Assembly (NCBI GenBank): GCA_038061755.1
Contig: JBBTYN010000002.1
Coordinates: forward strand, 79,312 to 143,311
Length of the DNA stretch: 64,000 bases
Reading direction: 5' to 3'
DNA from: Patescibacteria group bacterium
Lineage (GTDB): Bacteria; Patescibacteriota; Minisyncoccia; Phycocordibacterales; UBA9973
This document shows, one piece after another, positions 21,001 through 49,575 of this stretch; position 1 is the first letter of the stretch; each line of letters opens with the position of its first letter. Both the position numbers and the translations under genes were made by a program. The notes beneath the pieces are model-generated. The model ran no database searches. It saw only the letters and a list, made by a program, of their open reading frames with translations, and was not told where the DNA came from.

Positions 21001-21055
21001 AACTGGTGTGGATAACCCCCACACCTTTCATTATAAAACAAAAGGTGTGGGGGAT
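21001..21055. repeat. GC-rich palindromic element (copy 2 of the CCCCCACACCTTT family) containing a perfect DnaA-box 9-mer
   Basis: The sequence tgtGGATAACccccacacctttcattataaaacaaaaggtgtggggGATAACt has a 13-bp stem and the direct repeat GATAAC on both flanks (TSD-like). TGTGGATAA is a perfect DnaA box. Confidence 0.6.
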
Positions 21056-23248: not shown

Positions 23249-23281
23249 GTCTAAAAAAAAGATTCATGTTATATTGAATGC

Positions 23282-27016: not shown

Positions 27017-27897
27017 AGGCAAAAAAATCTCTCGGACAAAATTTCTTAAAGTCAGAAATAGCTCTTCGTAAAATTATTGAAGCGGGAGAAATAAAATCTA
27101 CTGATGTAATTTTAGAAATAGGGCCAGGCAAGGGAGCGTTAACCTCTAAGCTTCTAGAAAAATCTGGAATAGTTATCGCTGTTGAAAAAGATCGTGAACT
27201 TTTTGAATTTTTAAAAATAAAATTTGCAGAAGCAATTACAGAAAAAAAATTAATTTTAATAAATGATGATATTCTAAAATTTATAGAGGATGTTGTTTTG
27301 AAAAGCATTGCGCAGGCTGACGAGCCGAGCATAGCAAATTTTCAGCAGAAAATTATGTGCGGTTTTCAAAATAATATCCTCAATAAATTTAACTACAAAA
27401 TCATTGCCAATATTCCTTACAACATTACCGGCGCAATTTTAAAAAAGTTTTTAACAGCAGAAAATCAACCCGAAAGTATGATATTAATGGTTCAGCATGA
27501 AGTAGCCAAAAGAATCATAGGAAGGGGAAGCAACCCTTCGACTCCGCTCAGGGTAAAGGAAAGTATTCTCTCTATTTCAGTCAAGGCTTACGGGGAGGCA
27601 AAGATGATAATGAAGGTTGATAAAAGATATTTCTCACCAAGTCCTAAAGTTGATTCGGCTATTATCGCCATAAAAAATATTTCTAGGAAGAATTTTGAAG
27701 GTGTCAAACACCCGATGTTTGACAATTTTGAAGAGAAATTCTGGGAAATAGTAAAAACTGGCTTTGCACATAAGAGAAAAAAGCTTTCTTCAAACTTAAA
27801 AGTTTTAAAATTAGAAAAAACCGACCTCCTAGAAAAGTTGGGAAACAAAAGAGCGGAAGATTTAACTCTTTCGGACTGGCTTGCATTAACTAAATAG
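27013..27897 (+). CDS. ksgA: 16S rRNA (adenine1518/1519-N6)-dimethyltransferase KsgA/RsmA (carrying an in-frame 92-bp element)
   Basis: LGQNFL, EIGPGKGALT, NIPYNITGAIL and F.P.PKVDSAII motifs. There is an extra 30-aa block between DILKFIE and NKFNYKIIANIPYN. Confidence 0.85.
   Translation: MKAKKSLGQNFLKSEIALRKIIEAGEIKSTDVILEIGPGKGALTSKLLEKSGIVIAVEKDRELFEFLKIKFAEAITEKKLILINDDILKFIEDVVLKSIAQADEPSIANFQQKIMCGFQNNILNKFNYKIIANIPYNITGAILKKFLTAENQPESMILMVQHEVAKRIIGRGSNPSTPLRVKESILSISVKAYGEAKMIMKVDKRYFSPSPKVDSAIIAIKNISRKNFEGVKHPMFDNFEEKFWEIVKTGFAHKRKKLSSNLKVLKLEKTDLLEKLGNKRAEDLTLSDWLALTK
27289..27380. repeat. 92-bp MITE-like palindromic element inserted in frame in ksgA (copy B)
   Basis: Identical over 92 bp to 24473-24564. 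The terminal inverted repeats extend to GAGGAT...ATCCTC. The reverse-frame ORFs 24280..24516 and 26994..27332 both start MLGSSACAMLFKTT because of this repeat. Confidence 0.7.
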
Positions 27898-28903: not shown

Positions 28904-31162
28904 ATGACTGGTAAAAATAAAATAATAAAATTCATCTCTGTTATTCTAATTATTTCAATAATAATGCCTGTTGTTTTATTTTCTAGTCCCCAAAAAGCGC
29001 GAGCAACTGTACCGACTGCAGAGGTAGGCGCATTCGGATGGATTTCTAAATATTTTCAAGAATCAACCGCAGCATCTTCTTGGACAACAGCTTTAACAAC
29101 TGTTAAAGATTGGGCGGCCAAGATAGCTAAAGAGGTAATGAAAGCAATCGCAAAAAAAATCTTAGCGAAAATGACTCAAGCTACCATAAATTGGATTAAT
29201 TCTGATTTTCATGGACAGCCGCTTTTTTTAACGCATCCTGACTCTTTCTTTAGAGACATAGCAAAATCAGGACTAAAAGATATGGTAAATATATTCGGCT
29301 ATAACAACCTCCTATATCCTTTTGGTAGGCAATTTGCTTTAAATGCAATAAATAGTTACAAAAGCAAACTCGCTCAAAATGCCGAATATAGTTTAGGTAA
29401 AGTCTTGGATGGAGCGCAACTTAGGCTGTATCTAGGTAATTTTAATTATGGTGGATGGAATGGATTTTTAAATAATACGCAATACCCTCAAAATAATTAT
29501 CTAGGATTTAATATGATAGCAACCGAAGAGCTTGCCAGAAGAATTAAGGGTACAGTTCAATCTGCTGCTGATAAAGTACAATCCACTCTCCAGCAAGGAA
29601 TGGGTTTCCTCTCTCCAGAAAAATGTACAACTAACCCTAAATACAATAATGGAACAAATGAATTCCAAAAACCAAGTCTTGATACGGCTAAATGGGAGGC
29701 TGATTACAAAAACAGCCATCCTATTCCTTCTGGTCCTTCTGGTTCCAGTATGGATGCTATGGACAAATGGGATACAGATTTTAAAGCTGCTGAAGAAAAG
29801 GCTATAGATGATTTCTATACTAATAATACTTGCCCAAAAAAAGCAGACGGAACAAGTGGTTTTGAAAAAACTACTCCAGGCTTTGTGGCAGCTACCCAAG
29901 TAACAAATGCGCTTAATATGCCAGGCTTGACGACCGCGCTTGATGGAGCATTAGGCAATAGCTTAGCTGCTATTTTTGACGCCCTTTTAAATCACTTTTT
30001 AGACAAAGGCTTAAATGCGATGGCAAATAAAATTAACCCCGCACCCTCAATAGACAACTGGAGTTATAGTGGCAATACATTAACTGGAGGCACTGCTACA
30101 ACAACTGCTACAACAGTTGAAACTTTAAATATCCCACAAAACGTTTCAGTTACTGTCGGACAAACAACCAGCACCACAATCTCAGGCGGTTCAGGGACTT
30201 ATAGTATTCAACCTCAATCAAACGCGTCGCTGACAATAGCGATTGCCACGGTTGATATTTCTGGCTCTCTTCCAAAACTCAAAGTTACTGGTGTCGCGAA
30301 GGGTACAACCTCAGTCATAGCGCAAGATTCGTCTAGCCCAATACAAACTATAACGGTTACCATCACCGTAAGTAATATGGGGGATATAGTGGTTACTCCA
30401 GCAAATATTTCAACCGATGTTGGCGCGCAAGTCACCGCCACTATGTCTGGTGGCACAGAACCTTATTCTATTCAGACGAGCCCCAATGAAACAAATGCGA
30501 TAGCAACGTTTTCTGGCAATAACTTAATCGTATTTGGTATGGCAAATGGTACTACTTTTGTTGATATAAAAGATTCTTCAGCGCCAGCAAAAACTGTTCG
30601 CGTCAAGATATTAGTTGGTCCTAATATTTTAATCGTCGATCCATCAAGTGTTTCAGTTTATACTGGTGAAGTAGTTAGTGTGCCAATCTCAAATGGCACA
30701 GCACCGTATTTCGTCACAAATCAACAAAATATTAATGTGGCAACTGGTGAAATTTTATCCGCTACTCCTAATATCCTCACTGTTACCGGTCGCGCAGAAG
30801 GGACAAGCGTGGTGACAATCACAGATTCATCAACTCCAGCAAAAACAACTATCGTCAAAATTACGGTTTCTCTTAACTTAACCATTACACCGTCAAATGT
30901 TACACTTTATCTTAATAGTTGTTTTCTTGGTAGGTGTAGTAATACAGCCAACCTTACCATCTCAAATGGCACAGCGCCGTATTTCGTCACAAATCAACAA
31001 GACCCCACAGTGGCAACTGCTCAGGTTCTGTCAGCTTCTTATGGTGATTCAATTCTCACTGTTACTGGCCTCAAGGCAGGAACAAGCGTAGTTACTGTAG
31101 AAGATTCATCAGCTGAAGCAATCAAGCATGCCACCGTAAATATTACAGTAGTTAATAATTAG
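28904..31162 (+). CDS. Large cell-surface protein with four or five tandem Ig-like (Big-like) repeats
   Basis: N-terminal TM/signal segment. The C-terminal half has repeating roughly 90-aa units (ISGGSGTYSIQP..., MSGGTEPYSIQT..., ISNGTAPYFVTNQQ... twice) ending ...TVTG.AEGTSVVT..DSS.PAKT..V.I.V. Confidence 0.6.
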   Translation: MTGKNKIIKFISVILIISIIMPVVLFSSPQKARATVPTAEVGAFGWISKYFQESTAASSWTTALTTVKDWAAKIAKEVMKAIAKKILAKMTQATINWINSDFHGQPLFLTHPDSFFRDIAKSGLKDMVNIFGYNNLLYPFGRQFALNAINSYKSKLAQNAEYSLGKVLDGAQLRLYLGNFNYGGWNGFLNNTQYPQNNYLGFNMIATEELARRIKGTVQSAADKVQSTLQQGMGFLSPEKCTTNPKYNNGTNEFQKPSLDTAKWEADYKNSHPIPSGPSGSSMDAMDKWDTDFKAAEEKAIDDFYTNNTCPKKADGTSGFEKTTPGFVAATQVTNALNMPGLTTALDGALGNSLAAIFDALLNHFLDKGLNAMANKINPAPSIDNWSYSGNTLTGGTATTTATTVETLNIPQNVSVTVGQTTSTTISGGSGTYSIQPQSNASLTIAIATVDISGSLPKLKVTGVAKGTTSVIAQDSSSPIQTITVTITVSNMGDIVVTPANISTDVGAQVTATMSGGTEPYSIQTSPNETNAIATFSGNNLIVFGMANGTTFVDIKDSSAPAKTVRVKILVGPNILIVDPSSVSVYTGEVVSVPISNGTAPYFVTNQQNINVATGEILSATPNILTVTGRAEGTSVVTITDSSTPAKTTIVKITVSLNLTITPSNVTLYLNSCFLGRCSNTANLTISNGTAPYFVTNQQDPTVATAQVLSASYGDSILTVTGLKAGTSVVTVEDSSAEAIKHATVNITVVNN

Positions 31163-31198
31163 GTCATTCCGTAAGAAATATGCCATTTGAAATAATAA

Positions 31199-33238
31199 AT
31201 GTCAAAAGATTTAACAAAAAAAAAATCTGCTATTGAAAAAAATAAGTTCATTCTAGCGAGGACTGTCCTAGCTAGTGTGTTTGTTTTGTTCGTCTTGATA
31301 GGAATTTTTAGTCCGCTGACGAAAGTAAATGCTGCTGCTGACCCAAAACAATTAAATTTTCAAACCGCAATAGATGAACAAATATGTCTTTCTTGGGATG
31401 GTGGTCTTTCTCCTGGTGCATGTCTAGTGCAATTTTCATATTACCTGCTATATGTAATTCCGGCTTTTTTGCTGACAATGGCTGCTATATTTTTCAATAT
31501 CCTAATATCTATTACTTTAGGCAGTACGCTTCTTAAGTCAACCTTTATTTCTGACGCATGGGCAGTAGTTCGCGACCTTTCTAATATGTTCTTCATACTT
31601 ATTTTACTTTATATAGCCATTAAAGTTATTTTGGGAATGAGCGGATCTGAAGTTAAAAAAATGATAGGAAATGTCGTGATAATGGCGCTTCTTATAAATT
31701 TTTCTATGTTTTTTACTCAAGTGATTATTGATTCTTCAAATATATTGGCTTTAATTTTTTACAATAAGTTAAGCCCAACGTCTCAATACACCACAATAAC
31801 TGGAGAAAAAGATATTGCGGGTGGCTTAGTTCAAGCCTTTAACCCCACAGCCTCTTTGAGTCCAAATTTTTTTATAGCAGCTAAGGCAACACAAATACCA
31901 GACCCAGACGATCCTACCAAAACCATAACAAAAAAAGAAGACAAAGTGCCACTCGGAATGATGGTAGGAATTATTCTTGTTACTGGATTAGTTTTACTTT
32001 TTGCCACATATGCATTATTTGTGTCAGGACTATACTTCGTGGGCAGATTAATTGAGCTTTTTGTCTTAATTGTTTTCTCTCCTTTTGCTTTTATGTCTTG
32101 GACAATACCAAAATTCGCAGGTATAGACTACATAGGATGGGACGCTTGGCTTAAACGCCTTATCACGGCATCATTTATGGCGCCGATTTTTATGTTCTTT
32201 TTATATTTTATATTTATGGTAGTGAAAGCAAATATATTCAGTGATTCTGTATTAACAGGTCAAGGTATAATAATAATGTTATTACGTATGGCAATCCCAG
32301 CATTGGTAATTTTGGTTTTGCTTCTTCAAGCAGTCAAATTTGCCAAGAAAGGCTCCGGAATGTTTGGGGAAATGGTAATGAAAGGCGCAAAGATGGTAGG
32401 CGGGGTGGCCTTGGGGGCAACAGTAGGTGGGTTAGCAGTCGCTGGACGAGCAAGTGTTGGTAGAGCAGGGGCAGCTATGGCAAATTCAGAATGGACAAGG
32501 AAACGAGAAGCTGCAGGAAAATTTGGTTCTGGGGTATTTAGAGATGTAACAAAAAAAATGGGTACAGGTAGCTTTGATATTAGGGGAGCAAAAATTGGTG
32601 GTCAAACCTTAGCTTCTGCTACGGGTATGAAAGTTGGTGAAGCGCAAAAAGGTGGTTTTGCAGAGAAAAGAGAAAAGGATGTAAAGAAGAGAGTGGAAAG
32701 AGCTAAAGAAATTGAAGTTGGAGAGGATGAACATTTGAAACAAGCATTAAATACAACAGAAGCAAATCTACAGGGACTTCTAAGTGCAAATGCAAAAGAA
32801 ATTGAGACACTTGATAAAACAATTGAAAAGAAAAGACAAGAAGCAATTGACGCAGAAAGAGACTTTAAGGCTGGAACAATCACACAAACAGATTTACAAA
32901 CAAAAACAAATGAACTGAAGAATGCAAAAGATAATAAAAAGGATTTTGTAAAGGGAAATGAATATATGACCACAGATAGTGCTGGTATAGCCTCAATCAA
33001 AAAAGGAACTGGGGTAAATATTGATGCCTTAGAAAAACTTAAAAAAGATCAAGTTCAAGATATAAAAACAGAAAATGTAATAAGAAGACAGGCTTATGCT
33101 ACTAAATTAGAAGGTGGTGGAAATAGAGCTTTAAATTTTGTATTCAGTGGAGGTCAGTATGCCTTAAAGCGTGGTGCTAATGAGGCTGCACATAAAATAA
33201 GAACTGAAGTTAAATTAGACAGTGGAACAAAGGCATAA
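31199..33238 (+). CDS. Polytopic membrane protein, VirB6/TrbL-like candidate of a T4SS-like cluster, with a C-terminal charged coiled-coil tail
   Basis: At least 8 predicted TM helices over about 400 aa, then a K/E-rich tail. It lies in a cluster with VirB4 and PrgI-like genes; the assignment is by architecture and context only. Confidence 0.45.
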   Translation: MSKDLTKKKSAIEKNKFILARTVLASVFVLFVLIGIFSPLTKVNAAADPKQLNFQTAIDEQICLSWDGGLSPGACLVQFSYYLLYVIPAFLLTMAAIFFNILISITLGSTLLKSTFISDAWAVVRDLSNMFFILILLYIAIKVILGMSGSEVKKMIGNVVIMALLINFSMFFTQVIIDSSNILALIFYNKLSPTSQYTTITGEKDIAGGLVQAFNPTASLSPNFFIAAKATQIPDPDDPTKTITKKEDKVPLGMMVGIILVTGLVLLFATYALFVSGLYFVGRLIELFVLIVFSPFAFMSWTIPKFAGIDYIGWDAWLKRLITASFMAPIFMFFLYFIFMVVKANIFSDSVLTGQGIIIMLLRMAIPALVILVLLLQAVKFAKKGSGMFGEMVMKGAKMVGGVALGATVGGLAVAGRASVGRAGAAMANSEWTRKREAAGKFGSGVFRDVTKKMGTGSFDIRGAKIGGQTLASATGMKVGEAQKGGFAEKREKDVKKRVERAKEIEVGEDEHLKQALNTTEANLQGLLSANAKEIETLDKTIEKKRQEAIDAERDFKAGTITQTDLQTKTNELKNAKDNKKDFVKGNEYMTTDSAGIASIKKGTGVNIDALEKLKKDQVQDIKTENVIRRQAYATKLEGGGNRALNFVFSGGQYALKRGANEAAHKIRTEVKLDSGTKA

Positions 33239-33242
33239 AAAT

Positions 33243-33716
33243 ATGACGGACAAATTAAAACAAACAATTAAAGACGAAGTGGAAAAATTACCAAAAGAAA
33301 ATCAAGAAGTGATTAATAATTTTGGTTGGGAAAAAATTACGGAAGAAGTTGGAAAGAAGTTTTTACTTTCGGATAATGAAATAAATGATTTTCAAGTAGA
33401 AACTTTAATTATTTTAGTTGGATTAGAAGATATTGATTTTTACGCGAGTAATATAGAAAACAATGTCGGCACCAGCAAGGATGAAGCGAAAAAAATTACT
33501 GATGAAGTAATTCAAAAAATATTTACCCCAATTAATGACATCCTAGTAGAAAACATTAAAAAAAGCGACAAGCTAAAAAATACAAACGTAGAACAAAATC
33601 TTAATTTTATTCTTTCCGGTGGAGATTATACGGCCTTTTTGGATGTCCCACGCCTTATTGATGAGGGAGCAGGAGAAAATGAAACAGTTTTACCGGTCTT
33701 TTTTATTAAAAAATAA
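33243..33716 (+). CDS. Hypothetical acidic protein (paralog of the next gene)
   Basis: Shares with 33731..34306 an N-terminal LPxExQxxIN motif and a similar layout. The start is taken at the internal Met (MTDKLKQ). Confidence 0.45.
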   Translation: MTDKLKQTIKDEVEKLPKENQEVINNFGWEKITEEVGKKFLLSDNEINDFQVETLIILVGLEDIDFYASNIENNVGTSKDEAKKITDEVIQKIFTPINDILVENIKKSDKLKNTNVEQNLNFILSGGDYTAFLDVPRLIDEGAGENETVLPVFFIKK

Positions 33717-33730
33717 TATATAATAACAAC

Positions 33731-34306
33731 ATGGAAGACACAACAGATTTATTACAAATAAAAATTGAGAAGGCAAAAATGCAATTGCCAGAAGAAACCC
33801 AAAACGCAATCAATGCTGTTGATTATAAAGCGGTTATTTTAGAAATGAGAAAAAAAAAAGGATATAGTTTTGAACAATTAGGAGACCTAGAAACTGAAAC
33901 AGAATTATTGCTTTGCGGGCTTCTTAGTCCAGAAAATTATCCAAAAGAATTAGGAAACAGGATGCATCTTTCAGGTAATGAAGTTAATGAATTAGTAAAA
34001 GAAATGAATAATCGTGTTTTTGCAAAAATAAAAGAAAACTTGGTAAAAAGGACAGAAGAAAAAAAAGAAGAAAATGATGATATGCAAATATTACATTCTG
34101 CTGGAATTGAGATTATTCCTGAAAAAAAAGAATTAACAACACCCACGCCTCCAATCTTGGCACAAAAATTATCCGGTTATGTTAAAAATGAAGTAGTGGA
34201 AACAGAACATTCTCTAGAAAATATCACAAAAATAAGTATGCCAACTCCACCAATTACTAAAACAAGCAAAATAACTATAGATCCATATAGAGAAATTCCT
34301 GAATAA
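33731..34306 (+). CDS. Hypothetical acidic protein (paralog of the previous gene)
   Basis: MEDTTDLLQIKIEKAKMQLPEETQNAINAV... No recognisable family. Confidence 0.45.
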   Translation: MEDTTDLLQIKIEKAKMQLPEETQNAINAVDYKAVILEMRKKKGYSFEQLGDLETETELLLCGLLSPENYPKELGNRMHLSGNEVNELVKEMNNRVFAKIKENLVKRTEEKKEENDDMQILHSAGIEIIPEKKELTTPTPPILAQKLSGYVKNEVVETEHSLENITKISMPTPPITKTSKITIDPYREIPE

Positions 34307-34312
34307 CAAAGC

Positions 34313-34391
34313 AATTACGAATTATCAATTACGAATTACGAATTAAAAAAACAAAAAAATTAAAAATCAGTAATTACGAATTACGAATTTG
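34313..34391 (+). repeat. Array of AATTACG heptamer repeats (direct orientation) upstream of the four-helix-bundle gene
   Basis: The array reads aattacgaattatcaattacgaattacgaattaaaaaa...agtaattacgaattacgaattt. Confidence 0.7.
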
Positions 34392-34751
34392 AAAGAAAAT
34401 ATTATACAACAAAAAAGTTATGTATTTGCAATAAAAATTATTGAATTATATAAATACTTAATTGGAACAAAAAAAGAATTTATTTTATCAAAACAACTTT
34501 TGAGAAGTGGAACGTCAATAGGAGCAAACATAGAAGAAGCATTAGGTGGTCAATCAAGAAAAGATTTTATCTCAAAATTATCTATAGCCTATAAAGAAGC
34601 TCGAGAAACAAAATACTGGCTCTCTTTATTAAGGGAAGCAAAATATATGACTCAAGAAGAATTGAATCCTGTTTTTGATAATTGTGAGGAAATATTAAAA
34701 ATAATAGGTAAAATTCAAAAAACATCAAAAGAAAATGGGGTTAATTCGTAA
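34389..34751 (+). CDS. Four-helix-bundle protein (TIGR02436 / 23S rRNA IVS protein / DGR Avd-like family)
   Basis: 120 aa with ...SKQLLRSGTSIGANIEEALGGQSRKDFISKLSIAYKEARETKYWLSLL..., matching the sQl.RsatSI.aNIaEG...s.kdF...l.iA..e..Et..wl.l motif. TTG start. The gene lies inside heptamer-repeat arms. Confidence 0.75.
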   Translation: MKENIIQQKSYVFAIKIIELYKYLIGTKKEFILSKQLLRSGTSIGANIEEALGGQSRKDFISKLSIAYKEARETKYWLSLLREAKYMTQEELNPVFDNCEEILKIIGKIQKTSKENGVNS

Positions 34752-34790
34752 TTGATTATATAATGTTCTATAATGTAGTAGTGGGTTGCT

Positions 34791-34826
34791 AATTCGTAAT
34801 TCGTAATTCGTAATTTATAATTGATT
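34791..34826 (+). repeat. Inverted-orientation heptamer array (AATTCGT x3) plus conserved leader aatttataattgattcatATG
   Basis: Reverse complement of the upstream AATTACG array. Together the arrays form the arms of a hairpin whose loop is the 4HB gene. A second partial copy (aattcgtaattgat) overlaps the 4HB stop codon at 34743-34756. Confidence 0.7.
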
Positions 34827-34829
34827 CAT

Positions 34830-35273
34830 ATGCAGTTTAAAGTTCCACAATTTTTAGACATAGAAGACAAAATATTCGGCCCTTTCACTTTTAGGGAATT
34901 TGTTTATTTGGCTGGTGGAGCAGGCTTGTGTTTTATTCTTTATAAATTGCTAGGTCTTATTTTAGGAGCCATACCAATTTTAATTGTGGCAGGATTTTCG
35001 CTCGCTCTTACTTTTTATAAACCAAACAATAAACCATTCCTTAACATAATTGAATCTAGTTTTAAATACTTTACCAAAAACAAACTTTATATTTGGAAAA
35101 AAGGCAAAAGCCACGCTTCAATGGACGGTGTGCGACATGATTTCACTAAATCAGATATAAACAAAGTTCAAATAATACATTCTAGTAATTTACAATTAAA
35201 TGGAAGCAAGTTACGGGACTTAGCTTGGAGTTTGGATGTATTAGATTTAAGTAAACAACAGGGAAAAAATTAA
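34830..35273 (+). CDS. PrgI/VirB3-like small membrane protein
   Basis: MQFKVPQFLDIEDKIFGPFTFREFVYLAGGAGLCFILYKLL..., a two-TM hairpin architecture typical of the PrgI family, immediately upstream of the VirB4 genes. The ATG start is at 34830. Confidence 0.5.
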   Translation: MQFKVPQFLDIEDKIFGPFTFREFVYLAGGAGLCFILYKLLGLILGAIPILIVAGFSLALTFYKPNNKPFLNIIESSFKYFTKNKLYIWKKGKSHASMDGVRHDFTKSDINKVQIIHSSNLQLNGSKLRDLAWSLDVLDLSKQQGKN

Positions 35274-35282
35274 GAATTAGCA

Positions 35283-35378
35283 ATTACGAATTACGAATGA
35301 AAAATACAGATTACAAATTAAAAGATTATGAGTTGCGAATTAAATTCGTAATTCGCAATTCGTAATTTAAAATTGATT
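35283..35378 (+). repeat. Intergenic hairpin made of heptamer repeats (direct AATTACG arm, 43-nt loop, inverted AATTCGT arm) plus the conserved leader before the next ATG
   Basis: aattacgaattacgaatg...(loop)...aattcgtaattcgcaattcgtaatttaaaattgattcaaATG. This is the same architecture as the arms flanking the 4HB gene, but with an empty loop. Confidence 0.7.
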
Positions 35379-35381
35379 CAA

Positions 35382-36020
35382 ATGGCCTTAAAAGCAAAAG
35401 CAACTCAAGAATTTGTGCCAATCAAGGAAGTTCGCGATGGAATAGTCGTGCTAAAAAACGACGAATTACGGGCTATCGTGCTGGCTAATTCTGTAAATCT
35501 ATCTCTAAAATCTTCTGATGAACAACAAGCAACAATAATGCAATTTCAAAATTTTCTTAATACCTTAGATTTTTCTGTGCAAATATCAATCCAATCAAGA
35601 AGGCTAAACATTAGGCCTTATCTTTTGCTTTTGGAAGACAGAATAAAGGTTCAAAATGAACCCCTTTTAAAATTACAAACTAGAGAATATATAGAATTTA
35701 TTAAAAATTTTACTGATTCAGTGGCAATAATGACAAAAAACTTTTTTGTAGTAGTTCCATACACCCATACTACTTTAAAATCAGACTCTGGAATACTGGA
35801 TAAAATATTTTCAAGAAAAAATAAAGAGGAGATAAAAGTTGCAAAACAAATAGATTTTGAAGAAAAAAGGTCTCAATTGGAAGAAAGAGTAGCTGTTATT
35901 CAGCAAGGACTCTCCCGTTGTGGTATAAATTCAGCTCAACTTGGTACTGAAGAAGTAGTGGAAGTATTTTATAAAGTTTTCAACCCGGGGGAAATAGAAG
36001 GAAAAATTAAATTAGAATAA
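35382..36020 (+). CDS. VirB4/TrbE N-terminal-domain protein (split from the ATPase)
   Basis: EFVPIKEVRDGIVVLKNDELRAIVLANSVNLSLKSSDEQQATIMQFQNFLNTLDFSVQI resembles the VirB4 N-domain. The ORF ends 28 nt before the ATPase ORF. Confidence 0.5.
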   Translation: MALKAKATQEFVPIKEVRDGIVVLKNDELRAIVLANSVNLSLKSSDEQQATIMQFQNFLNTLDFSVQISIQSRRLNIRPYLLLLEDRIKVQNEPLLKLQTREYIEFIKNFTDSVAIMTKNFFVVVPYTHTTLKSDSGILDKIFSRKNKEEIKVAKQIDFEEKRSQLEERVAVIQQGLSRCGINSAQLGTEEVVEVFYKVFNPGEIEGKIKLE

Positions 36021-36048
36021 TCTACGAGCTTAACGCCACAAAAATTAT

Positions 36049-37899
36049 ATGGATTTTTTTAAAAAATTATTTGGAAAAGAAAAAAAGACTGAAAGTGAAG
36101 AAATACGAACTTCTGTTTTGGCTGTCTTGCCAGAAAAAATTTACGAATCTGCAAATTTGGAACTTCAAGATATCATTGCCCCATCAGCCTTAAAAATCGA
36201 CCCGAAATCTATAAACCTAGGTAGCAAAATAGCCCGCACTTTTTTTATAATATCTTATCCAAGGTTTTTAACAGATAATTGGTTTTCTCCAATAATTAAT
36301 TTAGATAAAATTTTTGATATTTCAATATTCGTTCACCCCATAGACACTTCTCTTGTTCTGCGACAATTTCAAAAAAAAGTTGCCGAAGTCCAAAGTCAAA
36401 TAAGTGTTCGAGAATCAAAAGGAATGGTGCGTGACCCAATGTTGGACACTGCCTATGAAGACTTAGAAGGGCTTCGTAATAATTTAATTCAAGCACAAGA
36501 AAAAATGTTTGATGTCGGTATTTATATCACAATTTATGCAGATAATGAATTGGAATTATATAAAATAGAAAATGAAATAAAATCAATGCTTGAATCAAAG
36601 CTAATATATATCAAACCGGCTCTTTTTCAGCAAGAAGAAGGTTTTAAAAGTGTCATTCCAATAGAAACAGACCTATTAAACATCCACCAAAAATTAAATT
36701 CTGAGCCCCTTTCTAGCGTTTTTCCATTTATTTCTTCTGATCTTACTTCAGACAAAGGAATACTTTATGGCATTAATAGACATAACTCGTCCCTCGTTAT
36801 CTTCGATAGATTCAGCTTGGAAAATTATAACTCAGTAACATTTGCTAAATCAGGTTCTGGAAAATCTTATGCGACAAAATTAGAAATTCTAAGATCCTTA
36901 ATGTTTGATACTGATGTTATCGTAATAGATCCAGAAAGAGAATATGAATTCTTGGCTGAAGCTGTCGGTGGACGATATTTTAACATTTCGCTCTCTTCCG
37001 ATCATCACTTGAATCCTTTTGACTTGCCGATACCTCGCGAAGACGAAACAGCTGAAGATGTTTTACGTTCAAATATCATTAATTTAGTAGGGCTTTTTAG
37101 ACTAATGCTAGGTGGGCTCACTCCAGAAGAAGATTCGATGGTAGACCGAGCTATTTCAGAAACTTATGCAATGAAAGATATAACGCCAGAATCAGATTTT
37201 TCAAATATTGAACCACCTCTTCTTTCAGATTTTGAAATGGTGCTCGGAGGAATGGAAGGAAGTGATTCAGTCATTGCTAGATTAGCAAAATACACCAGAG
37301 GTTCTTGGGCAACTTTTTTAAACAGACCGTCTAACGTGGATATTAATAAAAAATTCGTGGTATTTTCTGTTCGTGATATGGAAGACGAATTAAAACCAGT
37401 AGCAATGTATATTATTATGCATTATATTTGGAATGCAATAAGAAAGAATCTTAAAAAAAGACTTCTAGTGGTGGATGAAGCTTGGTGGATGATGAAATCA
37501 GAAGATACAGCCTCGTTCTTATACTCTATTGCAAAAAGAGGCAGAAAATATTACTTAGGTCTTTCCACTATCACTCAAGATGCGGCAGACTTTATGAAAT
37601 CTCCCTATGGAGTGCCAATAATTACCAATTCCTCCATTCAACTTCTTTTAAAACAATCACCTACCACAATTGATATTTTGCAAAAAACTTTTAATCTTAC
37701 TGATGAAGAAAAGTATTTACTTTTGGAGTCTGGATTAGGAGAGGGTATATTTTTCGCCGGATTAAAACATGTTGCTATAAAAATAGTTTCTTCTTATACG
37801 GAAGACCAAATCATTACCTCTGATCCTTCACAACTATTATTAAACAAAAAGGCCAAAGAGGAACAAGAAGCAAAAGCGACAGCGACAGCAGGGAAGTAG
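36049..37899 (+). CDS. VirB4/TraC/TrbE-family type IV secretion ATPase (ATPase domain)
   Basis: Walker A AKSGSGKSYATK, Walker B LLVVDEAWWMM and GRKYYLGLSTITQ. The size and motifs match the VirB4 C-terminal two thirds. Confidence 0.8.
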   Translation: MDFFKKLFGKEKKTESEEIRTSVLAVLPEKIYESANLELQDIIAPSALKIDPKSINLGSKIARTFFIISYPRFLTDNWFSPIINLDKIFDISIFVHPIDTSLVLRQFQKKVAEVQSQISVRESKGMVRDPMLDTAYEDLEGLRNNLIQAQEKMFDVGIYITIYADNELELYKIENEIKSMLESKLIYIKPALFQQEEGFKSVIPIETDLLNIHQKLNSEPLSSVFPFISSDLTSDKGILYGINRHNSSLVIFDRFSLENYNSVTFAKSGSGKSYATKLEILRSLMFDTDVIVIDPEREYEFLAEAVGGRYFNISLSSDHHLNPFDLPIPREDETAEDVLRSNIINLVGLFRLMLGGLTPEEDSMVDRAISETYAMKDITPESDFSNIEPPLLSDFEMVLGGMEGSDSVIARLAKYTRGSWATFLNRPSNVDINKKFVVFSVRDMEDELKPVAMYIIMHYIWNAIRKNLKKRLLVVDEAWWMMKSEDTASFLYSIAKRGRKYYLGLSTITQDAADFMKSPYGVPIITNSSIQLLLKQSPTTIDILQKTFNLTDEEKYLLLESGLGEGIFFAGLKHVAIKIVSSYTEDQIITSDPSQLLLNKKAKEEQEAKATATAGK

Positions 37900-37917
37900 G
37901 TATGATATAATTAGGTC

Positions 37918-38898
37918 ATGAAATTAAGATTTTTATTATTAAGTTTTATTACACTAATAATATTAGGAACTTTTTTGCCACTAAAAGTAAGGGCTACCTC
38001 TATTGATATCTTTGTTAATATAACTCCAGAAAACCCAGATCCTGGTGAAAACGTAAATATTACTTTGAAAAGCTATGTTAACAACTTAGATATTGTTTTA
38101 ATCTCTTGGTCTGTGAATGGTAAAAAAGTTTCTTCTGGAATTGGTCAGAAATCTTTTTCTATTACTGCTCCAAGGGCTGGAGAGGAGACAAATGTTATAG
38201 CCACCACCTCTCTGCCAGATGGAACAGTAGATACAAAAATAATAATAAGACCTTTAGTAATGATATTGCTCTACCAAGCAATGGATTCTTATGTTCCTCC
38301 TTTTTACAAAGGTAAAGCATTGCCATCCCCTGATAGTAAAGTAAAAATTGTAGCTCTACCAGAAATAAAGTCGGGCTCTAATTTGGTAGATCCTAAAAAT
38401 TTAACTTACACGTGGACAAAAGATTATAACAATAATCAAGATGATTCAGGTTATGGAAAAAATTCTCTTACTTATATAAACGACTATCTTGATAATTCAA
38501 ACAATATTGGGGTAACAGCTGGAACAACGGATCAAAAATATTCATCAACAGGAAGTATCAATGTAGGAATGACAGAACCAAAAATTATATTTTATAAAAA
38601 TGATGCAAAACTAGGAACAATTTGGGAACAGGCGCTTTCTGATGGGTATAAAATAATAGGTGATGAAATTATAGAAGCGGCACCATATTTTATATCACCA
38701 AGCGATATAAGAATTCCAACGCTTACTTGGGATTGGTTTATAAATGACGAAACAGTCAATGCGCCAATTTATAGAAAAAACACTCTGCCACTCAAAGCAC
38801 AAGCTGGAACCTCAGGAACATCTAAAATAAGATTGGAAATTAATAATAAATACAAAATTTTTCAAAATACAGTTAAAGAAATTAATGTGGACTTTTAG
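37918..38898 (+). CDS. Secreted hypothetical protein of the T4SS-like cluster
   Basis: Signal peptide MKLRFLLLSFITLIILGTFLPLKVRA. No family recognised. Confidence 0.5.
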   Translation: MKLRFLLLSFITLIILGTFLPLKVRATSIDIFVNITPENPDPGENVNITLKSYVNNLDIVLISWSVNGKKVSSGIGQKSFSITAPRAGEETNVIATTSLPDGTVDTKIIIRPLVMILLYQAMDSYVPPFYKGKALPSPDSKVKIVALPEIKSGSNLVDPKNLTYTWTKDYNNNQDDSGYGKNSLTYINDYLDNSNNIGVTAGTTDQKYSSTGSINVGMTEPKIIFYKNDAKLGTIWEQALSDGYKIIGDEIIEAAPYFISPSDIRIPTLTWDWFINDETVNAPIYRKNTLPLKAQAGTSGTSKIRLEINNKYKIFQNTVKEINVDF

Positions 38899-38899
38899 T

Positions 38900-39355
38900 A
38901 TGAAAAAATATTTATCTTACATTTTAATACTAATCGTTCTAATTGGTTTTATGACTCCTATTTATTTTAGTTTGGCTGAAAACTATAATCTTTTAGCTCC
39001 TTTGCCTAAAACTGATGGAACAACAATGAGTAGTTATCCTACGCAGGATGGAAACTTGAGCGTTTATTTAAACTTAATGATAAAACTCTTCATCGGCATC
39101 TGCGCTGTTTTAGCTGTGATAATGATTGTAATGGGTGGAATTGAATATATGACAAGCGAATTACCTGGAATGAAAAGCGAAGGCAAGGAAAGAATTAGAA
39201 ATGCGATTTTTGGGCTTCTTTTAGCTCTTGGTGCTTGGACGCTTCTTAATACAATCAATCCAAACCTACTCAAGACTAATATTGTGCCACCTGTAAAAAC
39301 TATTGTATGTACCCCTCCAGCAGTTTTAAAGAATGGTCAATGTGTTAATCCATAA
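38900..39355 (+). CDS. VirB2/TrbC-like pilin candidate
   Basis: Signal peptide, then two hydrophobic helices (LFIGICAVLAVIMIVMGGIEYM and AIFGLLLALGAWTLLNTI), which is the VirB2-type pilin architecture. The start is taken at MKKYLSYIL. Confidence 0.4.
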   Translation: MKKYLSYILILIVLIGFMTPIYFSLAENYNLLAPLPKTDGTTMSSYPTQDGNLSVYLNLMIKLFIGICAVLAVIMIVMGGIEYMTSELPGMKSEGKERIRNAIFGLLLALGAWTLLNTINPNLLKTNIVPPVKTIVCTPPAVLKNGQCVNP

Positions 39356-39365
39356 TAAATAATAT

Positions 39366-40712
39366 ATGTCAAAAAGAAACTTTATACTTTTAATAATAAT
39401 CATAGTTATCGCATTAATTGCAATTTTTGGATATTTTTATTTTAACCAAGGAACAAATACACCAGGAGGAGATGACACAGGTACAAACTTTATTTCACAA
39501 TTTTATCCATTTAGAAATAACAACAATGCAACAAAACCTACCACCACAACGCCTCCCATTGATGTCTCAGACTACCAGCCACCAATGGATGTAGTAACTG
39601 TAAAATTAAAAAAAGTTTCAAGCATGCCTATTGCAGGCTTTACTGTATTTTCTAAAGAAAGGTTAAAAGATGTGCCCATAGTAACACCGGTCTTAGAAAC
39701 CGATGCCACTACCGAAAATCCTGCTCCTAAGATAACCAAGCCGACTCCACCACTAACCGAATTTATGCCAGCCTTGAGGTATGTGGAAAGAACTACGGGA
39801 AATATTTACCAGACTTTTGCAGATAAAATAGAAGAAAGAAAATTTTCCACGACTATTATTCCTATGGTTTATGAAGCATTTTTTGGAAACAAGGGAAATT
39901 CTGTAGTTATGAGATATTTAAAGGGAGATGCTAAAACTATTATAACTTTTGTTGGGACTCTACCAAAAGAATTTCTTGGCGCAGACACCACTGACAATAA
40001 TGAAATAAAAGGAACGTTCCTTCCAGAAGACACAGAAGATGTAAGCCTATCAAGCGATAATCTTACTCTATTTTATCTTTTCAACTCTGGAGACAATATA
40101 ATTGGCACAACTTTAAATTTAGTAAATAATAAAAAAGTTCAAGTTTTTGATTCACCATTTACTGAGTGGTTATCATTATTCCCAAATAATAAAATGATTA
40201 CTTTTACCACCAAACCTTCGTTTCTAATACCTGGATATATGTATGCGCTAAATCCTACTAATAAAAATTACAATTTCCATGAAATCTTAGGCAATATAAA
40301 CGGGCTTACCACTCTCACCAGCTCTGATGGAAAATTAGTTCTTTATAGTAATGATAATTTATCACTCAACATTTATCACATAAATACAAAAGTTTCTGAT
40401 GCCCTAGTTGTAAAAACATTAGCAGAAAAATGTGTTTGGAATAAAAATAGTGATGCTATTTATTGCGGAGTACCAAAATCTATATCTGGCACTCAATATC
40501 CAGATAGTTGGTATCAAGGAGAAGTTTCTTTTTCAGACCAAATTTGGAAAATAGATATTAAAACTAAAAATGCAACAATGATTGCAGATCCAGCCACTAT
40601 GGTTGGCGGGGAAGATATCGATAGCATAAAACTTGCGCTAGATGATGGAGAAAACTATTTATTTTTTGTAAATAAAAAAGATTCTTTCCTTTGGGAACTT
40701 GAGCTTAAATAA
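39366..40712 (+). CDS. Hypothetical membrane-anchored secreted protein (448 aa)
   Basis: N-terminal TM LLIIIIVIALIAIFGYFYF followed by a T/P-rich linker. It is the last gene of the cluster. Confidence 0.5.
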   Translation: MSKRNFILLIIIIVIALIAIFGYFYFNQGTNTPGGDDTGTNFISQFYPFRNNNNATKPTTTTPPIDVSDYQPPMDVVTVKLKKVSSMPIAGFTVFSKERLKDVPIVTPVLETDATTENPAPKITKPTPPLTEFMPALRYVERTTGNIYQTFADKIEERKFSTTIIPMVYEAFFGNKGNSVVMRYLKGDAKTIITFVGTLPKEFLGADTTDNNEIKGTFLPEDTEDVSLSSDNLTLFYLFNSGDNIIGTTLNLVNNKKVQVFDSPFTEWLSLFPNNKMITFTTKPSFLIPGYMYALNPTNKNYNFHEILGNINGLTTLTSSDGKLVLYSNDNLSLNIYHINTKVSDALVVKTLAEKCVWNKNSDAIYCGVPKSISGTQYPDSWYQGEVSFSDQIWKIDIKTKNATMIADPATMVGGEDIDSIKLALDDGENYLFFVNKKDSFLWELELK

Positions 40713-41199
40713 CTCCCACGTATTTAATAACAACTCGACGATCACGCCCGATGCCTACAGATTCAGTCTTTAGGTCACTTGATTCAGACAAAAATTCATG
40801 AATAATTCTTCGCTCAAAAGAGGACATTGGATCAACTTCTATATTAGACTTAAAATACCTAGCTCTTTCTGACATCATATGAGCTACTGCGCGAATATTT
40901 TCAACATGTTTTTTTTGAAAACCATTTATATCAATAATAATTGCTGTCCCAAAGCAAGGCTTAGGGGATTCCCCTAAGCCTTGCTTTGGGGTTGTTTTTG
41001 ATTCTATAATCCTATGAGCAAGGTAGTTTAATGCGTGCAAGCCATCACCATCGTGTCCAATAAAAAAATGCGGCTCACTAACTTCCACAGAAACCCATAT
41101 ATTTTTAGGTTCATCATCAATAATTGAAATTTTATTTAATTTTACTGTAGTTTTTTCAATTAATTCTTTTATTAAATTTTGAATTTCTTCTTTTTCCAT
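40705..41199 (-). CDS. jag: Jag/KhpB (KH + R3H domain RNA-binding protein), with an in-frame palindromic insertion in the linker
   Basis: Jag_N-like start, KH segment (FFIGHDGDGLHALNYLAHRI) and an R3H C-terminus (SSFERRIIHEFL...GIGRDRRVVI). Confidence 0.8.
   Translation of the reverse strand: MEKEEIQNLIKELIEKTTVKLNKISIIDDEPKNIWVSVEVSEPHFFIGHDGDGLHALNYLAHRIIESKTTPKQGLGESPKPCFGTAIIIDINGFQKKHVENIRAVAHMMSERARYFKSNIEVDPMSSFERRIIHEFLSESSDLKTESVGIGRDRRVVIKYVGVI
40948..40990. repeat. Perfect 20-bp-stem, 3-nt-loop GC-rich hairpin inside the jag CDS
   Basis: CCCAAAGCAAGGCTTAGGGG-att-CCCCTAAGCCTTGCTTTGGG encodes ...TPKQGLGESPKPCFGT... on the minus strand, in frame. Confidence 0.65.
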
Positions 41200-41200
41200 A

Positions 41201-41929
41201 TTATTTAATTACAATCTTGAAATTTTTTTCTCTTTTAACATAAATCTGTTGCACAACCATAAAAAGATTACTGGTAATCCAGTAAAGTGCTACTGCTCCA
41301 GAAATACTATAAGCGATAAAAGCAATAACAAATGGAAAAACATATTTCATTTGCGTACTCATACTTTTAGTAAAAGATTCTTGAAAAGAGCCCTTGTTAC
41401 TTGAAGTAGAAATGGACGGTTGTGGCATATAATAAGCCTGCAAATATTGGGAAACGCCAGCTAAGACCGCTAAAAGCCAACTTTTTTGTGTTATATCAAG
41501 AACTCCCAAGAAAATCATATTTATCTTCTCAGGAATATTAACAAAAGAATATAACAACCCGCTTTCAAAATTTAAACCTTTAAAAAATACATAATATAAA
41601 GCAAAAATAACCGGAATCTGAATTAAAACCAAAAGACATCCTGAAAAAGGATTAGTGTTATGTTTTTTATATAATTCAAATGTTTGTTTGGCTTGTTCTT
41701 CTTTCGAAGCTCCACTTGCTTTTATTTTGTTAATCTCAGGATTTAAAATATTCATCTCTACCTGACTTTCAATTGATTTTTGAGACAAAGGAAAAAGAAT
41801 AATTTTAACAAGAATAGTAAGAATAATAACTGCAACACCAACATCTCCACCAGGGACAATTGACACCAAAAAAGCTAGCGCGTTTAATAATGGCTGATAT
41901 AAAATAGTATTCCATATATTTGTAAGCAT
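41201..41929 (-). CDS. yidC: Membrane protein insertase YidC (short form)
   Basis: About 5 TM helices and the conserved FPLSQKSIESQVEMN motif, in the rnpA-yidD-yidC-jag order. Confidence 0.85.
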   Translation of the reverse strand: MLTNIWNTILYQPLLNALAFLVSIVPGGDVGVAVIILTILVKIILFPLSQKSIESQVEMNILNPEINKIKASGASKEEQAKQTFELYKKHNTNPFSGCLLVLIQIPVIFALYYVFFKGLNFESGLLYSFVNIPEKINMIFLGVLDITQKSWLLAVLAGVSQYLQAYYMPQPSISTSSNKGSFQESFTKSMSTQMKYVFPFVIAFIAYSISGAVALYWITSNLFMVVQQIYVKREKNFKIVIK

Positions 41930-49520: not shown

Positions 49521-49575
49521 CAAGTGTGGATAACCCCCACACCTTTCGACAATACAAAGAAAGGTGTGGGAAATA
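49521..49575. repeat. GC-rich palindromic element (copy 3 of the CCCCCACACCTTT family) with a perfect DnaA-box 9-mer
   Basis: gtgtggataacccccacacctttcgacaatacaaagaaaggtgtgggaaataag shares a 23-bp 5' arm with copy 2. Confidence 0.6.

Follow-up and report, generated by a model that had tools for sequence, protein, structure and literature searches.

A candidate REP/REPIN-like hairpin element read in frame within jag/khpB of a Patescibacteria group bacterium

Known palindromic repeats and the palindrome in jag

Repetitive extragenic palindromic (REP) sequences, the inverted REP doublets known as REPINs and the genes encoding REP-associated tyrosine transposases (RAYTs) have been described by Bertels and Rainey (PMC3337134, PMC3116915), and long perfect palindromes have been described as by-products of REPIN activity (PMC3337134). 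In a 64,000-nucleotide stretch of the genome of a Patescibacteria group bacterium (GenBank assembly GCA_038061755.1, contig JBBTYN010000002.1, positions 79,312 to 143,311; this whole stretch is called the window here), a perfect palindrome lies within the coding sequence of jag/khpB. With a probability of roughly 0.6, we regard it as a REP/REPIN-like dispersed element, which belongs to a RAYT-associated hairpin family of Patescibacteria and is read in frame to give a loop of Jag that is predicted to be disordered. The host range of this family comprises Paceibacteria/Nomurabacteria and other lineages of the candidate phyla radiation (CPR).

Several features are shared with the REP/REPIN-RAYT systems. 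The unit is a short imperfect palindrome within the size range of about 20-40 nt, and two inverted units form one long hairpin. An apparently single-copy Y1/HUH transposase gene flanked by hairpins is present in related contigs (L029, L114, L115 and L113) and shows conserved synteny, and in some genomes the family is multi-copy in operon spacers. The family differs from REP/REPIN, however, in a doublet that has no spacer, measures 41-51 nt as a whole and has perfectly complementary arms, as well as in its low copy number in the sampled Nomurabacteria DNA. In addition, many of its copies are intragenic and translated, including some within the transposase gene itself, the hosts are Patescibacteria rather than Proteobacteria, and the transposase falls below the NCBIfam cutoff for RAYT.

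Rickettsia palindromic elements (RPE) are likewise in-frame palindromic repeats, translated within unrelated and often essential genes of a reduced, AT-rich genome (PMC10969869). Their length is ~100-150 bp, and the conserved peptide that they encode has 30-50 amino acids (aa); they occur in Rickettsia only, and no transposase partner is known for them. The jag element is 43 nt long and adds 4-14 aa, and its host belongs to the Patescibacteria. The jag palindrome may be considered functionally analogous to RPE. The GC clusters of yeast mitochondria (GC42) are also GC-rich palindromes, of ~42 nt, scattered in an AT-rich genome; their stems are more conserved than synonymous sites, their occurrence is sporadic, and their units merge or shuffle into new palindromes (PMC4478555). 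Unlike the family described here, they reside in an organelle in hundreds of copies, with an AG target-site duplication, imperfect looped stems and no Y1 transposase. Finally, template switching can create and repair perfect hairpins in one step (PMC8794818; PMC5453318). Such quasipalindrome mutations resemble the jag palindrome in giving perfect repeats at once, with simultaneous compensatory changes and no G·U intermediates (PMC8794818), but they are a mutational mechanism and not an element family, which alone leaves homologous copies at unrelated loci unexplained.

The jag palindrome, its translated loop and its orthologues

A sequence-only reading of the window had reported a perfect hairpin with a 20-bp stem, embedded in frame in jag/khpB, and this has been confirmed. 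The palindrome reads CCCAAAGCAAGGCTTAGGGGA-T-TCCCCTAAGCCTTGCTTTGGG, with two 21-nt arms that are 100% complementary and 1 nt between them (Table 1), and as a hairpin of RNA or DNA it forms a 20-bp stem with a 3-nt loop. The GC content of about 60% given earlier applies to the 20-nt arms; that of the whole palindrome is 56%, and that of the window is 33%. The predicted RNA fold has an energy of -43.3 kcal/mol in a 103-nt context (z = -6.9), and the corresponding DNA fold has a z of -7.3. A scan of positions 40600-41300 against Rfam returned only sub-threshold generic long-hairpin matches, far below the gathering threshold. The window copy scores 68 bits against a covariance model of the family (R1, introduced below), and no further family copy was detected in the window by a palindrome scan or by this model with filters off.

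Table 1. Coordinates of the palindrome, its parts and its host gene in the window
Feature	Position	Strand	Remarks
jag/khpB, 164 aa, KH-like N-terminal part and R3H	40705..41199	minus	last gene of the rnpA-yidD-yidC-jag operon, adjacent to dnaA
REPIN-like inverted doublet (candidate), abutting, of a ~20-nt GC-rich unit	40948..40990	no strand	43 nt, perfect palindrome
Arm 1, one unit, CCCAAAGCAAGGCTTAGGGGA	40948..40968		itself an imperfect palindrome: CCCAAAG/CTTAGGG, 1 mismatch, core CAAGG
Arm 2, TCCCCTAAGCCTTGCTTTGGG	40970..40990		exact reverse complement of arm 1, including the internal A·A mismatch of arm 1
Peptide encoded by the palindrome, codons 70-84, T P K Q G L G E S P K P C F G	40948..40992	minus	
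T-rich tail, GTTGTTTTTG	40991..41000	plus	after the palindrome, antisense to jag; jointly with the palindrome, matches the pattern of an intrinsic terminator for the convergent gene 39366-40712

The view that such a structure is very unlikely by chance also holds. About 1e-6 perfect stems of at least 21 bp are expected in 64 kb (analytic estimate), no second match to the arm at up to three mismatches occurs in the window, and 0 of 100 shuffles had a match. Amplification can in general make inverted chimeras, which is the sole point in favour of an artefact of assembly or amplification, such as a chimeric inverted junction. However, jag including the palindrome is 100% identical across six assemblies in ENA and Logan, which were made independently from Hainich groundwater with different samples and pipelines, and the palindrome is therefore not an assembly artefact. 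Homologous palindromes are also found in dozens of metagenome-assembled genomes (MAGs) from unrelated studies. Based on the chance estimate and the six identical assemblies, a fortuitous match or an artefact has been rejected and can for practical purposes be dismissed.

The open reading frame (ORF) at 40705-41199 shows a Pfam match to R3H and a weak match to the KH domain of KhpA/B, and the gene order rpmH-rnpA-yidD-yidC-jag adjoins dnaA. The palindrome begins at nt 210 of the coding sequence and encodes P71-G84 (PKQGLGESPKPCFG), and the peptide is the one that had been given from sequence alone. The other two reading frames of the palindrome contain stop codons and the jag frame alone is open; a tryptic peptide across the encoded segment would be QGLGESPK / PCFGTAIIIDINGFQK. 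In an AlphaFold2 model of Jag based on 36 homologues (mean predicted local distance difference test score, pLDDT, of 78.5), the sole segment below 50 consists of residues 72-83, which are predicted to be disordered and sit between a helix (52-69) and a strand (86-91). The earlier placement of the palindrome in a KH-R3H linker is approximately right, but strictly, according to this model, the segment is a variable loop inside the KH-like fold. In an alignment of homologues this loop is hypervariable and variable in length, with invariant blocks on either side. Translational bypass and splicing have parallels in T4 gene 60 and the mitochondrial byps elements. Neither is needed here, since all coding copies found (in jag, rnpA and the transposase gene) are free of stop codons and keep the downstream frame, and translation of the insert is deduced from these open frames.

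It could be argued that the symmetry is a by-product of protein-level selection, the peptide (LGESPK and similar) being the conserved entity. The motif K-x-x-L-G-[DE]-S-P-K, a signature present in 12 among the 120 closest Jag protein clusters, indeed recurs in Jag, RnpA and the transposase. However, the same DNA is present in non-coding spacers, and the positions that never vary (C5, A8, G10, C16, T18, G23 and A24) ignore codon logic; a codon A-n-G, for example, yields K, M, R or T. The loop is, moreover, otherwise hypervariable and predicted to be disordered. Selection for a protein motif is disfavoured by the non-coding copies and appears highly improbable.

The orthologous gene was compared in 80 jag loci (L001-L080) from Nomurabacteria/Paceibacteria MAGs, and the covariance model R1 was built from 21 copies of the palindrome, 15 in jag and 6 elsewhere. 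With this model, a palindrome of the family was found in the same loop in 13 of the 80 loci, at 35-74 bits. The jag copies have the apex YTAGGGGAWTCCCCTAR in common; their lower stems differ, each difference being mirrored in the opposite arm. Unrelated hairpins, such as CCCCTCTCCTTAnTAAGGAGAGGGG and CCCCTCCCTGCgAAGGGAGGGG, occupy the same loop in other orthologues, a shorter palindrome of 19-25 nt (TTCCCCTATCCCAGGGATAGGGGAA) is present in further ones, and about 60% have no palindrome in the loop. The sequence-only reading had named a comparison with Jag orthologues among its checks, and orthologues that encode the same residues without the symmetry, together with a lack of other copies, were not what this comparison returned: both arms change together, and copies exist elsewhere. 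The palindrome-bearing genes are scattered over a Jag tree that was built without the loop. Across 1.36 Mb of scanned sequence, of which the Jag loop makes up an estimated ~0.6%, 18 of the 47 GC-rich hairpins scoring at least 12 lie in this loop (17 in fetched loci, plus the window copy).

The architecture of the 21 copies is that of a stem kept complementary while its sequence changes. Standard pairs account for 99.1% of the 441 stem cells, with 4 G·U pairs and 4 mismatches, and changes on both sides were found at 11 of the 21 stem pairs (82 cells), a result that shuffled and slid controls came nowhere near. Pairing within each arm is also high (81.5%, compared with 20-52% in slid controls) and involves positions 4-22, 5-21, 8-18, 10-16 and 11-15, together with those that mirror them. 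The pairs A8-T18 and G10-C16 never vary, and columns 11/15 covary. As each arm is itself imperfectly palindromic, the 43-mer is therefore an abutting inverted doublet of a ~20-nt unit. The basic form of this unit is CCCnAnG-core-CnTnGGGG, an imperfect palindrome of ~20 nt.

The palindrome also evolves more slowly than the gene around it. Between species of the same subfamily it is 90-96% identical, as compared with 68-88% for the rest of jag and 46-70% for synonymous third positions; for L046 and L054, the three values are 93%, 68% and 46%. In the alignments, the conserved block stops sharply at the borders of the palindrome, and transfer of alleles by homologous recombination, in which flanks would be co-converted, has been rejected on this ground. 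Compensated double changes separate the orthologous pairs L046/L054 (one), L034/L049 (two, plus one G·T) and L051/L099 (one). Judged from these comparisons, the element is constrained in its own sequence and symmetry, or repeatedly renewed, and is not junk in decay.

The same data bear on the alternative that the palindrome is a host-selected cis-acting RNA hairpin of the rnpA-yidD-yidC-jag transcript, its presence at other loci being secondary. Such a hairpin might be a target for RNase III or for another kind of processing, make translation pause, bind the Jag/KhpB protein itself or terminate transcription of the convergent 448-aa gene. A position fixed in at least 13 species, the compensatory changes between orthologous pairs, a conservation far above that of synonymous sites with sharp borders, and a match to the intrinsic-terminator pattern on the + strand are consistent with this, and so are the copies in ribosomal-operon spacers; an unrelated perfect palindrome at the rpsH-rplF spot of a relative suggests that a hairpin as such is wanted there. 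However, the palindrome is absent from the majority of orthologues mentioned above, the nearest relatives L001 and L003 included, and in other orthologues unrelated hairpins take its place. The G·U pairs amount to 0.9% of the cells, which fits DNA-level copying better than selection for RNA folding alone. Further, Rfam gave no match above threshold, and loop hairpins show no correlation with a missing spacer between jag and the convergent gene or with a missing terminator. On balance, a host-selected RNA hairpin as the primary explanation seems unlikely.

With regard to termination, the palindrome and its T-rich tail are situated within jag, 236 nt beyond the end of the convergent coding sequence. 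An overlap between the two genes, or a spacer of at most 20 nt, was found in 5 of 13 loci with a family-A palindrome versus 24 of 45 loci without a loop hairpin. As no correlation was observed across 75 loci, we rejected an embedded terminator that would make up for the 8 nt by which jag and the convergent gene overlap. The terminator match may be a side effect, and the data do not support it as an explanation for the presence of the element. The jag gene and the convergent gene of ~450 aa, which has no Pfam domain, are neighbours in 73 of the 73 loci with a callable downstream ORF (75 examined). In the window (40705-40712) and in 16 fetched loci, the overlap of the two stop codons measures 8 nt, and an overlap or a distance of at most 20 nt is found in 35 loci. 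Because the stop codons overlap, at least one of the two transcripts must end inside the other gene.

Copies at other sites and RAYT-like transposase genes

Copies of the family have been found at several sites outside jag. The rnpA gene of L019 carries an in-frame 50-nt perfect palindrome of the family, and this is a clean insertion, since the encoded protein is the sole one among 32 RnpA orthologues with the extra 14 residues. In L040 and L007, degenerate copies are present between yidD and yidC. In a metagenome scan, the 19-nt apex was matched at 24 loci, among them sites in jag, in spacers between ribosomal-protein genes, in one spacer between convergent genes and inside a 223-aa ORF. In AT-rich contigs the apex is nearly always the centre of a 41-51-nt perfect palindrome; in L084, L096 and L104 only a 9-10-bp apex is present. 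The same pattern had 0 matches in viral contigs, and a phage origin has been rejected on that basis.

In terms of copy number, model R1 detected five copies within the 8 kb of L081, each of them located between genes for ribosomal proteins, three in 11.7 kb of L089, and two each in L085, L099 and L114, the second copy of L099 lying directly 3' of the jag stop codon. All the copies of the five-copy and three-copy CPR contigs are in spacers. One of those in L081 (6854-6902; CCCAAAGCCTTGCTTAGGGGAACCCCCTAAGCAAGGCTTTGGG) is identical to the window copy at 35 of 43 positions by hand count, and differs from it in the apex and in an inverted core (CAAGG vs CCTTG) in each arm. The hairpin family is thus dispersed, and it is multi-copy in some genomes.

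Two further observations concern the spacer copies. Those at L081 568-615, 2966-3013, 6854-6902 and 7187-7234 and at L085 7690-7738 are preceded by GTT and followed by TCT (TCTA after L081 568-615); these shared flanks may represent a target site or belong to the element itself. In the rpsH-rplF spacer of one genome (L095 1240-1288) there is a family-A 43-mer, and a related genome (L085 5927-5981) has another perfect palindrome, ACATCCGATGTCCA-AG-TGGACATCGGATGT, at this spot. A hairpin is retained at the site, but its sequence turns over.

The 223-aa ORF that holds a family doublet in L098 encodes a Y1/IS200-like transposase; it has a match to Pfam Y1_Tnp (PF01797, E = 2.8e-10) and scores 55 bits against the NCBIfam model of REP-associated tyrosine transposases, for which the cutoff is 80. 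Its homologues number 1485, mainly from Patescibacteria, and some have been named RayT by the Joint Genome Institute (JGI). In L114 and L115, the RAYT-like gene is found in conserved synteny with genes for HSP20, a solute-binding protein and pilins, a few kb from dnaA-rnpA-yidC; judged from gene order, this would be as expected for a domesticated RAYT and not for an insertion sequence. The core AGGTTSAACCT occurs 12 times in the 1.6 Mb examined, always at RAYT loci. In L029 and L114 it flanks the gene on either side; in L115 it is found upstream of the gene, within it and downstream, and in L113 upstream. Further, a related monomer is located 13 nt past the transposase stop codon in L098, while in L113 the RAYT stop codon is followed by the monomer TCCCTATGTTCAACCTAGGGGA and, from 29 nt after the stop, by the 49-nt doublet TTTCCCTATGTTCAACTTAGGGGATTCCCCTAAGTTGAACATAGGGAAA. 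The apex of this doublet, CTTAGGGGATTCCCCTAAG, is identical to that of the window copy, and the doublet scores 66 bits with model R1.

RAYT-like genes themselves carry in-frame perfect palindromes of 44-49 nt (L098 906-954, L113 1468-1514, L114 9551-9594 and L111 1820-1866). They are found in a single loop that directly precedes the HUH motif, and their arms vary among homologues, always with compensation. The palindrome in the transposase gene could be an autoregulatory or self-targeting site.

The window contains other structured stretches. The jag palindrome had been likened to further in-frame GC-rich insertions of the window, but these do not match the jag palindrome model and are not of the same repeat family. 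They comprise stretches in long ORFs at 23558-23649, 9630-9694, 27520-27559 and 55750-55855, among them one of 92 nt with 75% GC and -47.6 kcal/mol and one of 106 nt with -39.8 kcal/mol. At 25107-25166, two adjacent in-frame GC-rich mini-hairpins occur in a 736-aa ORF (23255-25465), which we take, from inspection of its sequence, to encode a putative UvrD-like helicase. The first of them, TCTCGACCAAAGTCGGGA, is identical to the jag-loop hairpin of L052 (10209-10226) and is read in the same frame (STKVG), so that one hairpin is common in frame to two unrelated genes of different genomes. A second, unrelated hairpin repeat, CCCCCACACCTTT-loop-AAAGGTGTGGGGG, is present at 2892-2922, 21017-21052 and 49535-49571, where there is no ORF of at least 60 aa; six of its half-sites were found versus 0.12 expected, and it has a REP-like or terminator-like appearance. 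Downstream of jag, a cluster at ~30700-40700 (equivalent to L105 10488-20495) contains, by Pfam, T4SS (type IV secretion system)-pilin-like, TraG/VirD4-like, TraC-like and PrgI-like genes and a gene for a 23S rRNA intervening-sequence protein.

Origin of the doublet and its significance

A single unit, sometimes decayed, occupies the same site in the close relatives L002, L005, L006, L010, L013 and L077; the resident monomers of L002 and L006 are CCCCGAAACCAGGTTTAGGGG and TTCCCCTATCCCAGGGATAGGGGAA, respectively. Because close relatives carry a single unit at this position, the doublet has probably arisen from a resident monomer, and an arm 2 that copies arm 1 exactly, with its internal mismatch, is the signature of a copying event. 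One explanation would be a purely local template switch (fold-back) that made an ancestral quasi-palindrome perfect, with no mobile family and no function involved. In favour of it are a left-arm-like stretch kept without the palindrome (ACC CCG AAA CCA GGT TTA GGG GAA in L002; also in L005, L013, L077 and L022), the second arm as an exact reverse-complement copy of an imperfect unit, and the small net change in length. However, palindromes of the same family, which have the apex and motifs of the lower stem in common, are found at unrelated loci in many genomes, and neither the clean rnpA insertion and the multiple copies per contig nor the association of the family with RAYT-like genes would follow from a local event. 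A conservation far above the synonymous rate is also unexpected for a neutral by-product. A local template switch as the whole explanation is accordingly improbable.

In the REP/REPIN-like reading that we prefer, units would be copied or moved as single-stranded DNA hairpins by a RAYT-like transposase. The jag doublet would have formed by inverted duplication of the monomer resident in the loop, either through fold-back/template-switch synthesis or through insertion of a second inverted unit. It may be through template switching that the doublet was made or is maintained, and the local alternative is to that extent contained in this explanation. Survival of the element in jag would have been permitted by one stop-free frame out of three, a flexible peptide rich in Gly, Ser, Pro and Lys, and a loop that tolerates differences in length. 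Its strong conservation would point to a constraint at the level of nucleic acid, for which the candidates are recognition by the transposase and a contribution of the RNA hairpin to the way in which the operon transcript is processed or stabilised.

Several points weigh against this reading. The jag copy is not a clean 43-nt insertion, as loop lengths differ by just 4-14 aa and a monomer is already there in relatives; insertion borders or a target-site duplication in jag could not be recovered from the ortholog alignments because the loop is too variable, and no target-site duplication or cleavage motif was identified for the family. The window holds one copy in 64 kb and no RAYT-like gene. 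In Nomurabacteria, 16 copies were found in 1.3 Mb around jag, all in the rnpA-yidD-yidC-jag operon and mostly intragenic, and this single-operon distribution is unlike that of classic high-copy extragenic REP. The apex pattern is present at just the 24 loci in the entire metagenome scan. The monomers that flank RAYT-like genes have a core (GGTTSAACC) different from that of the window unit (GCAAGGC), and the link to these genes runs through shared architecture and apex and through the bridging copies in L098 and L113. Lastly, a host function would account for the conservation above the neutral level no less well than a constraint on the element. The suggestion of a mobile palindromic element, made by the sequence-only reading, stands as far as dispersed copies at unrelated sites and same-loop copies in orthologues are concerned, with movement deduced from this distribution; it does not extend to a simple insertion in jag.

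A further, more speculative proposal is that a REPIN/RAYT-type system has had its palindromes fixed as translated parts of the KH loop of Jag/KhpB, of RnpA and of the transposase, where purifying selection on the nucleic-acid hairpin holds them. This remains doubtful and is put forward tentatively. If true, the palindromes would be exapted in-frame cis-elements and not tolerated junk, and they could act in the rnpA-yidC-jag and ribosomal-protein operons as a signal for processing or stability, or could be an autoregulatory site for the transposase or for the RNA-binding Jag.

Genomes of the CPR are usually regarded as streamlined and repeat-poor. A limited literature check, in which only some of the searches named these bacteria, found no prior description of REP/REPIN-RAYT-like systems in the CPR. 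The family would represent a compact variant of such systems, with a spacer-less perfect doublet of ~43 nt that is found repeatedly in frame in essential genes, and a second, independent example of the phenomenon known from RPE. It is easily modelled and conserved well above the synonymous rate, which makes it a candidate functional hairpin of origin-near and ribosomal-protein operons. The inserts would inflate the apparent loop variability of marker proteins and may be usable as strain or lineage markers. With perfect complementarity of the arms and drift between copies, the family may also offer a natural test case for the maintenance of hairpins by template switching or fold-back synthesis.

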